From the NCBI GenBank assembly GCA_036388595.1, contig DASVRN010000110.1:8953-72952 (forward strand): a stretch of DNA of 64,000 nt. Reading direction: 5' to 3'. Under the pieces are notes generated by a model. The model ran no database searches. It was given only the letters and a program-made list of their open reading frames with translations, and had not been told where the DNA came from. This stretch comes from Chloroflexia bacterium (GTDB lineage: Bacteria; Chloroflexota; Chloroflexia; QHBQ01; JADMIH01). Both the position numbers and the translations under genes were made by a program. Below are positions 2,203 to 4,908 of the stretch, piece by piece; position 1 is the first letter of the stretch, and the number at the start of each line of letters is the position of its first letter.

Positions 2203-4146
2203 TTGAGATTGTGGATAACGCGCGTTTTTGGAGGTAATTTAGAGTTGGTTACACAGAATTATGATGCCCGAAGTATCGAGGTGTTGGAGGGGCTGGAACC
2301 CGTTCGTAAGCGCCCCGGTATGTACATCGGTGGTACCGACATACATGGTCTGCACCACCTCGTATATGAGATTGTTGACAACTCGGTTGACGAGCACATG
2401 CAGGGGCACGGCAACCGCATCAATATAACGATTGGCAAAGACAACAGCGTATCGGTGCGCGACTACGCCCGTGGCATCCCCGTGGAGCTGCACGCCAAGG
2501 TCAAGGTATCGGCGCTGGAAGTGGTAATGACCACGCTGCACGCCGGTGGCAAGTTCGACAGCGGCGCATACGTGCAGTCGGGCGGTTTGCATGGCGTGGG
2601 TGCCTCCGTGGTGAACGCCCTGTCCGAGTGGTGCCGCGTGGAAGTGCGCCGCGGCGGCAAGGTGCACATGCAGGAGTACGAGCGCGGCAAGGCCAAGGCC
2701 CCGGTCAAAGTGGTCGGCAAGAGCGACGAGACCGGCACGCTCACCATATTCAGGGCCGACCCCACCATCTTCGACACGGTTGAGTACGACTACGACATAT
2801 TGGCGCAGCGATTCCGCGAGATGTGCTACCTGAACAAGGGCATGATGGTCACCTTCCGCGACGAGCGAGAGGGCCGCGACCGGGAGATGACCTTCTACTT
2901 CGAGGGCGGCGTGATGAGCTTCGTACGCCACCTCAACAAGAACCGCAAGACGGTACACGCGCAGCCGATATACATCGAGCGCAAGGTGGGCACCTCTTAC
3001 GCCGAGATCGCGTTGCAGTACAACGACAGCTTCTCCGAGTCGGTCTTCTCGTTCGCCAACAACATCCACACGGTGGACGGCGGCGCACACCTTACCGGCT
3101 TCCGCGGCGCGCTCACGAGGACGCTGAACGACTACGCCCGCAAGGCCAACGTGCTCAAGGAGAGCGACGCCAACCTGACGGGTGAGGACGTGCGCGAGGG
3201 CCTGGTGGCTATCGTGTCGGTGCGCCTTAGCAACCCGCAGTTCGAGGGGCAGACCAAGGGCAAGCTGAACAATGCCGACATCAAGAACGTGGTGGAGCAG
3301 TCGGTGGCCGAGGGGCTGATGCAGTACCTGGAGGAGAACCCTTCGGATGCTCGCCGCATCATCGAGAAGTCGCTGACCGCCGCCCGCGCCCGCGACGCCG
3401 CCCGCAAGGCCCGCGACGTGGTGCGCAAGAACGCAGGCGAGTCGAGCACGCTGCCTGGCAAGCTGGCCGACTGCTCGGAGCGCGACCCGGCCAAGAGCGA
3501 GCTGTACATCGTCGAGGGCGACTCGGCGGGTGGCTCGGCCAAGCAGGGGCGCGACCGGCGAGGACAGGCTGTGCTGCCGCTGAGGGGTAAGATCCTCAAC
3601 GTGGAGAAGGCCCGCCTGGACAAGATGCTGGGCAACGAGGAGATCAAGGCCCTCATCACGGCGCTGGGTGCCGGTATCGCGGACGTGTGGGACACCTCCA
3701 AGCTGCGCTACCACCGCATCATCATCATGACCGACGCCGACGTGGACGGCAGCCACATCCGCACGCTGCTACTGACCTTCTTCTTCCGCCATATGCCGCA
3801 CCTTATCAACGGCGGGTACCTGTACATCGCGCAGCCGCCCCTGTACAGGGTAGCCAACGGCAAGAACGCCATCTGGGCCTACGACGACGAGCAGTTGAAG
3901 GTAGCGTTGAAGCAGATCGGCAAGGAGAAGCCTGCGATCCAGCGGTACAAGGGTCTCGGCGAGATGAACCCGGAGCAGCTATGGGACACCACGATGAACC
4001 CCGACACGCGCACGCTGCTACAGGTGACGGTCGAGGACGCGATGGTAGCCGACGAGACGTTCGACATGCTGATGGGCAACCAGGTCGCCCCCAGGAAGAA
4101 GTTCATCCAAACGCACGCTAAGAACGTGAGGAACCTCGACATCTAA
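2203..4146 (+). CDS. gyrB: DNA gyrase subunit B
   Basis: Full-length GyrB: GHKL ATPase motifs ([19 protein letters not shown]), a TOPRIM domain ([14 protein letters not shown]) and a C-terminal tail. The start may instead be TTG at 2245, which is preceded by GGAGG. Confidence 0.95.
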
Positions 4147-4160
4147 GTGGGGCCGCAACT

Positions 4161-4451
4161 ATGGACATTCGCGAGCGGGTAGATTCACTACGAGAGGAAA
4201 TCCTAGCGATAGCCACCCAACATGGCGCACGTAATGTGCGCCTTTTTGGTTCGGTAGCGCGCGGCGAAGCAAACACAGACAGCGATATAGATATATTGGT
4301 GGAGATGGAGCCTGGACGGAGTCTCCTTGACCTGAGTGGTTTGCTGCTCGACCTGGAGGATCTATTAGGCCGTTCGGTGGATGTAGTAACCGACGACAGT
4401 CTTCACTGGTACATCAAGGACAAAGTTCTGCGTGAGGCAGTGCCGCTGTGA
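4161..4451 (+). CDS. MntA-like minimal nucleotidyltransferase (type II/VII antitoxin of a HepT/MntA pair)
   Basis: 96-aa protein with a GS...DxD nucleotidyltransferase motif (GSVARGEANTDSDIDILVE). It overlaps the next gene by 4 bp. Confidence 0.8.
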   Translation: MDIRERVDSLREEILAIATQHGARNVRLFGSVARGEANTDSDIDILVEMEPGRSLLDLSGLLLDLEDLLGRSVDVVTDDSLHWYIKDKVLREAVPL

Positions 4452-4801
4452 GGGACGATAAGCTCTACCTGATACATATCAGTGAGTGCATAGAGCGTGT
4501 AGAGTCCTACGTGGCCGGTGGCAAGGCCGAGTTCATGTCTTCCTCTTTGATTCAAGATGCCGTTGCTCGCAACTTGCAAGTGATGGCCGAATCTACCCAA
4601 CGTCTGTCTGATGGTGCAAAGATGGCACACCCTGAGATCGACTGGCGCGAGATTGCTGGATTTCGTAATGTTCTGGTGCATGACTATCTTGATACGGATA
4701 GGGAAATCCTCTGGCAGGTGATAGAACGCGATCTACCACCCCTGAAGGCTGCGATGCATGCTATGCTTACTTCCGCACATGCAAATGGTCCTGCATCATG
4801 A
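4448..4801 (+). CDS. HepT-like HEPN (DUF86) toxin
   Basis: 117-aa protein with the HEPN Rx4-6H motif (FRNVLVHDY). It is translationally coupled to the upstream nucleotidyltransferase gene. Confidence 0.8.
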
Positions 4802-4810
4802 CGATACTGA

Positions 4811-4908
4811 CCGACGAGACGTTCGACATGCTGATGGGCAACCAGGTCGCCCCCAGGAAGAAGTTCATCCAAACGCACGCTAAGAACGTGAGGAACTTGG
4901 ATATCTAA
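4811..4908 (+). repeat. 98-bp duplicate of the gyrB 3' terminus (copy of 4049-4146) ending in TAA
   Basis: Near-identical to gyrB codons [31 protein letters not shown]. The three differences are all synonymous. Together with the genuine gyrB end it brackets the MntA/HepT cassette. Confidence 0.9.

Follow-up and report, generated by a model that had tools for sequence, protein, structure and literature searches.

A HepT/MntA cassette between gyrB and a displaced copy of the gyrB end in Chloroflexia: an apparently old islet whose repeat is probably renewed by gene conversion

We analysed a 64,000-nucleotide stretch of DNA (the window) from an uncultured Chloroflexia bacterium, which is part of a 77-kb metagenome contig in ENA (L001). 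Directly behind gyrB the window carries a predicted HepT/MntA toxin–antitoxin cassette, and behind the cassette stands a second, displaced copy of the gyrB end. The best explanation as a whole, to which we assign a probability of roughly 0.6, is that the cassette is an old islet bounded by a repeat of the gyrB end, that it has been inherited vertically, and that the displaced relic (gyrB') has been subject to conversion by the functional gene. An earlier description prepared without database searches (the sequence-only reading) had noticed this arrangement and taken it for a recent, homology-guided arrival. That reading is partly supported by the present results: its observation was confirmed and it was right about the anatomy and the variability of the locus, whereas the recent arrival was contradicted.

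All features of the locus lie on the plus strand. The functional gyrB gene (2245–4146, with a TTG start according to the gene call of the source assembly and the stop codon TAA at 4144–4146) encodes 633 amino acids (aa). The Pfam domains HATPase_c, DNA_gyraseB, Toprim, and DNA_gyraseB_C were all found in the protein, which is 98% identical to the GyrB of a Chloroflexota metagenome-assembled genome (MAG). Open reading frames (ORFs), Pfam matches, and motifs confirmed that gyrB is followed by a nucleotidyltransferase gene and an overlapping HEPN gene, which are co-oriented and adjacent with the antitoxin gene first. The former, mntA (4161–4451), starts 14 nt behind gyrB and encodes a predicted minimal nucleotidyltransferase antitoxin of 96 aa, which matched PF01909 (E=8e-16) and PDB entry 1WOT (E=2e-23); its motif LFGSVARGEANTDSDIDILV (GS-X10-DID) fits GSX10DXD. 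The latter, hepT (4448–4801), overlaps the end of mntA by 4 nt (GTGA) and encodes a predicted HEPN RNase toxin of 117 aa, which matched PF01934 (E=7e-27) and contains R-NVLV-H-D-Y, fitting RX4HXY. Its match to the HepT structures of Shewanella oneidensis (5YEP/6M6U) was weak. Most homologues cover 91% of HepT, and the C-terminal ~10 aa form a lineage-specific tail that reaches the junction with gyrB'. A separate observation concerns the interior of mntA, where a terminator-like hairpin, GGCGCACGTAATGTGCGCC, is followed by TTTTT (4224–4247). A single base, in the loop, varies (T/C) across four aligned homologues. This hairpin may reflect coding constraint (HGARNVRLFGS) or may be an attenuator.

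The cassette separates the functional gyrB end from a displaced duplicate of it, as the sequence-only reading had proposed. The repeat is 99 nt long and consists of the last 98 nt of gyrB and one G. Copy 1 (4049–4147) comprises the last 32 sense codons of gyrB, the TAA, and the G, and is separated from the ATG of mntA by a 13-nt spacer or leader, TGGGGCCGCAACT (4148–4160). Copy 2, the non-functional gyrB' (4811–4909), begins nine bases past the hepT stop codon, and 663 bp of cargo lie between the two copies. Alignment of the copies gave 86 identical bases, followed by CTCGAC in copy 1 and TTGGAT in copy 2, and then by ATCTAAG in both. The copies end in ...CTC GAC ATC TAA G and ...TTG GAT ATC TAA G, respectively, with exactly three mismatches, all of them silent, and the residues LDI are kept. 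The three synonymous differences reported before were thus confirmed by alignment, and the duplicate was found to extend one base further, to 4909. A 38-nt core of the repeat occurred twice in the window and not once in 100 shuffles. The repeat is not a fresh target-site duplication, in agreement with the sequence-only reading. A transposon target-site duplication was rejected as a candidate because the repeat is 99 nt long and imperfect and is accompanied by neither terminal inverted repeats nor a transposase. An integron cassette was likewise rejected, there being no attC-like site and no inverted repeats.

A small ORF of 36 aa (4798–4908, MTILTDETF...NLDI) runs over gyrB'. Its ATG overlaps the stop codon of hepT as ATGA, as described before, although it re-encodes 31 GyrB residues identically and not 33. 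The ORF probably arises incidentally from the open gyrB frame. Behind gyrB', three imperfect repeats, TACCAYARTWAYTTGAGG, are located at 4921–4983, for which a pattern search gave 3 matches against 0.04 expected. The three units had been read as tandem repeats; they are present, but as imperfect 18-nt units (4921–4938, 4942–4959, and 4966–4983) at a spacing of 21–24 nt, and Tandem Repeats Finder scored no repeat over 4000–5400. They are weakly conserved in one relative (L110; p=0.03 for the whole flank). Next comes a hairpin at 4990–5025 with a perfect (100% complementary) 15-bp stem and a 6-nt loop. This putative terminator is the first terminator-like structure 3' of gyrB, and its position behind copy 2 agrees with the sequence-only reading. 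The 136-nt stretch containing the hairpin and the three repeats (4905–5040) folded at -46.8 kcal/mol (z = -5.6). An Rfam search of the region returned nothing but a chance-level match to a small nucleolar RNA.

It had been considered that the duplication might be an assembly artefact, that is, a mis-join at the repeat. The short contig of a second ENA assembly (L002) stops within copy 2, a little short of the variant bases, which would be in line with such an error. This contig is, however, base-for-base the same as the window, and an 18-kb contig from the Joint Genome Institute (JGI; L004) is 100% identical to the window over 9.4 kb, including the whole structure. The two long contigs (ENA, 77 kb, and JGI, 18 kb) derive from separate samples and pipelines, and homologous structures are also present in two NCBI MAGs (L110 and L111). 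Since three assemblies, each from a separate sample, are identical, the structure is not an assembly artefact, and the probability that we leave for a mis-join is negligible.

To place the locus among its relatives, contigs were fetched via the closest GyrB (82–98%) and the closest MntA matches in a large protein collection; GyrB identities are given relative to the window. The gyrB–mntA junction recurs in other Chloroflexia lineages, at least eight of them, whose GyrB is 84–96% identical. mntA follows gyrB after the same 14–15 nt leader in L104 and L105 (both 96%), and after the same leader in L109 (~95% over the 66 residues available) and L115 (~95% by eye, with 3 differences in the 66 residues available); TGGGGCCGCAACT is common to these four. 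The spacer is 62 nt long in L110/L111 (88%), in which a decayed gyrB' stands at the homologous junction after a hepT pseudogene, and 42 nt long in L112–L114 (84%). In L108, gyrB is outside the contig and mntA is abutted by the end of a Tn7-like transposon. The cassette is missing from L103 (98%), L106 (96%), and L107 (95%), and L107 retains a 27-nt remnant of the gyrB end directly past the gyrB stop codon (shuffle p=0.0003). Loci with GyrB at 83–86% (L087, L088, L089, and L097) and below had no cassette either. Among the species genomes of GTDB, none of 80 gyrB loci carried a second copy of the gyrB end or the cassette, indicating that the arrangement is not a general phenomenon. The GTDB genomes yielded no close relatives, the best GyrB match there being ~73% identical over a 248-aa C-terminal query. 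A degenerate DNA scan of JGI metagenomes found 18 loci; every one of them had a single match, and the cassette was seen at none, which is weak evidence because the collection scanned lacks the known JGI contig. None of the viral contigs searched contained this gyrB end. Two observations on gyrB itself were made among the relatives. A 1069-aa GyrB relative (P0040), 84% identical to that of the window, contains the intein domain PF14890. In the 1.13-Mb contig L112, gyrB is split into ORFs of 410 and 177 aa (2047–3958), probably by a frameshift from a long-read assembly error; the same gene is intact in L113.

The divergence of mntA bears on the age of the cassette. Against the mntA of the window, dS (synonymous divergence) was 0.67 in L105, 0.82 in L109, 1.04 in L104, and 1.24 in L110. 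The dS of syntenic genes upstream was ~0.5–0.65 against L103 and 0.7–1.5 against L105 and L106 (whole range 0.53–1.48). Since the dS of mntA equals the background of flanking genes, vertical inheritance of an ancient cassette is indicated; judged by this divergence, the cassette is older than the species-level splits. The dS of gyrB from the window was 0.17–0.27, which is unusually slow at silent sites. Silent-site divergence of gyrB was 3–4 times lower than that of neighbouring genes when the window was compared with L103–L107. Moreover, the window gyrB is a mosaic relative to that of L104, with differences of 9–19% per 100 nt over large parts of the 5'-most 800 nt and of mostly 2–5% beyond. 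The slow silent sites and the mosaic pattern suggest codon constraint, recombination within gyrB, or both.

These results bear directly on the recent homology-targeted integration favoured by the sequence-only reading, in which the cassette would have brought along the gyrB end of a donor lineage and the differences between the copies would be those between donor and recipient. The differences are clustered at one end of the repeat in the manner of a crossover boundary, the CTC of copy 1 is shared with L104, the TTG GAT of copy 2 is the state of the cassette-free L103, and gyrB divergence from L104 is mosaic, all of which would be expected after such an event. However, both copies in the window contain a CAA codon where all ten relatives compared have CAG. 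Because this window-specific CAA is shared by both copies, a donor from another lineage does not fit. The same junction and cassette are found down to 84% GyrB identity, mntA has diverged as much as the flanking genes, and gyrB' was already present, in decayed form, in the 88% lineage (L110/L111). The CAA codon, the gyrB' of that lineage, and the dS values largely refute a recent integration, which we regard as very unlikely. An old structure shared among relatives, named beforehand as the finding that would speak against the sequence-only reading, is largely what was found, although the two copies in relatives are not identical.

If the cassette is ancient, the near-identity of the two copies in the window calls for an explanation. 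The gyrB' of L110 shares 83% identity with the gyrB end of its own genome, but only 69% with the gyrB' of the window. At the 19 sites that separate the gyrB ends of the window and L110, gyrB' carries the base of its own lineage at 18 sites in the window and at 14 in L110. Since gyrB' tracks its own lineage, free drift since a single old duplication does not fit. It is thus probable that gyrB' has been repeatedly overwritten by gene conversion from the functional gyrB end. The positions of the mismatches agree with this: all three are confined to the final 12 nt of the repeat (P=0.0014 under random placement), at an edge beyond which a conversion tract finds no homology. Most relatives have TTG GAT in their gyrB, which makes copy 1 the deviating copy. 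Because copy 1 is the constrained one, the differences can be silent without any selection acting on copy 2. The right junction and the downstream flank can be aligned between the window and L110, though their similarity is weak (p=0.03 for the flank). We also considered whether the duplication extends past the stop codon, and dropped this idea because comparison of the sequences behind copy 1 and copy 2 was not significant in either genome (p=0.14 in L110, p=0.62 in the window).

Several points weigh against this explanation. Relative to the clade majority, copy 1 has three changes within 6 nt and copy 2 has none in the matching 12 nt, which is a poor fit to gradual mutation. The mismatches may instead stem from one multi-nucleotide event or from an imported gyrB end, given the CTC in L104 and the gyrB mosaic relative to L104. 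Independent duplications in each lineage could likewise make gyrB' track its own gyrB; we rated them lower because the divergence of the cassette tracks that of the host and six MntA relatives stand at one locus. A clean state from before the insertion was not found, since the relatives with an empty site, L103 and L106, lack the downstream flank of the window. The origin event itself left nothing to observe: no recombinase, inverted repeats, or circular form was seen. Finally, the co-transcription with gyrB proposed below rests solely on the absence of signals in a scan for the sigma-70 consensus.

A related alternative is that the cassette is mobile, resembling an integrase-less, cis-mobilisable element that has been integrated independently at gyrB 3' ends by a site-specific recombinase acting in trans, the host end being displaced each time. 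Such mobility would account for the patchy distribution among close relatives, the cassette being present at 96% GyrB identity and absent at 98, 96, and 95%, as well as for the tracking of the host gyrB by gyrB' and the different spacer lengths (14, 42, and 62 nt). The variable, defence-rich cargo behind gyrB and the Tn7-like element abutting mntA in L108 would also be in keeping with it. On the other hand, the divergence of the cassette tracks that of the host and is not lower, and all six MntA relatives of at least 73% identity that were looked up are at the gyrB locus and none elsewhere. No recombinase gene is nearby, no viral contig has this gyrB end, and none of the 80 diverse gyrB loci has a duplicate. 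We therefore consider independent integrations of a mobile cassette unlikely.

It is also conceivable that copy 2 is itself under selection, with the 36-codon ORF encoding a functional free C-terminal peptide of GyrB translationally coupled to hepT. The ATGA overlap with the hepT stop codon, the preservation of LDI by all three differences, and the equivalent frame in L110/L111, which is still open, are compatible with such a peptide. Selection on it, however, would neither erase synonymous divergence nor yield the shared CAA. In L110/L111, 9 of 33 residues of this frame are replaced, and the differences between the gyrB' of L110 and its own gyrB (8 silent and 9 replacement) fit one constrained and one neutral copy. 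In addition, gyrB' is absent from L109 despite an intact toxin–antitoxin pair. A functional peptide is hence highly improbable, and conversion of a non-functional relic accounts better for gyrB'. Remnants of gyrB' or of the flank were sought in L103, L106, L104, and L109, and none stood above noise; downstream DNA of the cassette-free L103, L106, and L107 is unrelated to the window from 4910 onwards.

The two genes of the cassette have had different fates. mntA is intact in every cassette-bearing lineage and its dN/dS was about 0.1 across the pairs tested; the gene is evidently kept under purifying selection. hepT is intact in the window and L109 only. Truncations at five different points have shortened it in L104, L105, L108, L115, and L112–L114, and an in-frame TAG nonsense codon interrupts it in L110/L111. 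By this pattern, the toxin gene has been inactivated independently in most lineages, five or six times, with the antitoxin gene kept. The pair is an old resident that decays in the usual way, in which the toxin is lost first and the antitoxin is retained.

The following history would be consistent with the vertical inheritance of an old islet. In an ancestor of the clade, a DNA circle or fragment containing a segment of the gyrB end together with mntA-hepT may have recombined inside the gyrB 3' end, by Campbell-type or att-type integration or through one homologous and one illegitimate end. As a result, the original end of the gene would have been moved 762 bp downstream together with its terminator. 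Since then, several lineages have lost gyrB', retain a scar of it, or carry it in decayed form. The latest conversion in the window would have made the inner 86 nt identical and would not have reached the last 12 nt at the edge of homology. Between the repeats only mntA and hepT are present, and the genes called up to 6 kb to the left and right include no recombinase. Apart from the terminator hairpin, 3500–5600 contains no inverted repeat.

mntA and hepT leave no room for a promoter of their own and are probably expressed by read-through from gyrB to the hairpin at 4990–5025. No promoter- or terminator-like site was predicted between gyrB and mntA by a crude sigma-70 scan, the consensus of which may not suit Chloroflexota. 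The absence of a predicted signal there and the position of the first strong hairpin behind copy 2 make read-through likely. From what is known of the family (PMC7641770), MntA is predicted to block the HepT RNase through adenylylation of the Tyr in RX4HXY.

Each relative examined has unrelated DNA behind gyrB, or behind gyrB-mntA. This DNA contains an AriA/OLD-like ATPase gene in L115 (571–2424, E=1e-25), a gene for a PycTM-like protein in L113 (3859–4428, E=9e-7), a weak match to a pAgo-associated nuclease family in L106 (4609–5931), and a gene for a 951-aa methyltransferase in L108 (6911–9766). L108 also carries a Tn7-like element (1–4888 and 5760–5995) with Mu-transposase_C/TnsB-like and TniB/TnsC-like proteins and a TnsA-sized ORF. 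Its end, marked by six ~22-bp repeats (ATTCCGAA..CTTT), lies ~10 nt upstream of the mntA start and occupies the spacer that elsewhere follows the gyrB stop codon. The gyrB end may thus be an attachment site for Tn7-like elements. In the window itself, no recognised defence gene follows copy 2. These results, from a handful of loci, support the view that the gyrB 3' flank is a spot where accessory and defence DNA accumulates, and bear out the variable flank, often with defence-type genes, inferred by the sequence-only reading.

In a stronger version, the gyrB 3' end of this clade would serve mobile and defence DNA (OLD/AriA-like, Pycsar-like, and pAgo-associated genes and Tn7-like elements) as a dedicated attachment site or hotspot. 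gyrB' would then be an attR-like end kept competent for recombination by conversion, cargo would enter and leave between mntA and gyrB', and MntA, read through from gyrB, would serve as an anti-addiction 'gatekeeper'. We consider this whole scheme quite unlikely.

Some other features of the window were noted. CACGTTT occurs three times directly upstream of the gyrB promoter region (2108–2130). An AraC-family regulator with a GyrI-like ligand-binding domain is encoded 4 kb downstream of gyrB (8333–9289, minus strand), which is probably a coincidence. Arrays of the heptamer GGACGAT, of up to ~14 copies, are found in three intergenic places (41822–41933, 25473–25542, and 40158–40199). A second direct repeat of ~190 nt, 94–96% identical, is located at 16665–16850 and 18899–19085 (minus strand). 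Two small, paralogous ORFs (GGYIYEYDKEGR.VNVYPAGEKREPDP...) have their C-terminal ~60 aa encoded in this repeat, and a gene for a PRC-barrel protein (16994–18814) lies between the copies. The topology is like that of the gyrB case, yet both copies look like complete small genes.

The locus has some wider significance. A near-perfect repeat around a cassette need not signal a recent insertion; in the present case, the young look of the repeat is probably due to gene conversion. The relatives form a natural series of toxin–antitoxin decay in which the antitoxin is always kept, probably expressed from the transcript of an essential gene. The gyrB 3' flank is flagged as a possible variable, defence-rich spot in a poorly studied phylum. 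The HepT/MntA module itself is of an ordinary kind, and current understanding is not overturned by these findings.

Compared with known systems, the cassette resembles type VII HepT/MntA (HEPN/MNT) pairs such as SO_3166/SO_3165 of S. oneidensis, in which a small MNT gene is followed by a small HEPN gene that it overlaps (PMC7641770). GSX10DXD and RX4HXY are the defining motifs of this family (PMC7641770). The pairing of PF01909 with PF01934 and both motifs are shared by the predicted pair of the window. Unlike the pairs named above, the window pair stands 14 nt behind an essential gene without room for its own promoter, and the antitoxin alone survives in most relatives of the window. As for the origin, homology-facilitated illegitimate recombination could insert DNA and duplicate part of the anchor through a homologous gyrB anchor and an illegitimate joint (PMC3240628). 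This process is a candidate for the origin event only, and no microhomology of convincing length was found at 4802–4811.

Integrative elements and their integrase-less derivatives insert in the 3' ends of genes and supply a replacement end, as seen in tRNA-gene islands and in ICESt1/ICESt3 and cis-mobilisable elements (CIMEs) in the 3' end of fda of Streptococcus thermophilus. The islet resembles such an integrase-less mini-element in that cargo lies between direct repeats of the end of the target gene, the gene is intact, and the displaced end is on the far side. It differs in having no integrase nearby, only 663 bp of cargo, and no empty site with the same downstream flank, and in being old, vertically inherited, and not demonstrably mobile. 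Variable hotspots and defence islands can be anchored beside conserved core genes, and the DNA after gyrB(-mntA), which differs in every relative examined, is similar to these, although behind copy 2 the window lacks any recognised defence gene. Concerted evolution by gene conversion is known for duplicated tuf or ribosomal RNA genes. As in those cases, copies within a genome are more alike than orthologues and differences persist at the edge of homology, whereas in the present case a 99-nt non-functional relic from the end of an essential gene takes the place of a second functional gene. Taken together, the element is a HepT/MntA module placed at a gene end in the manner of an att site, and its relic undergoes concerted evolution.

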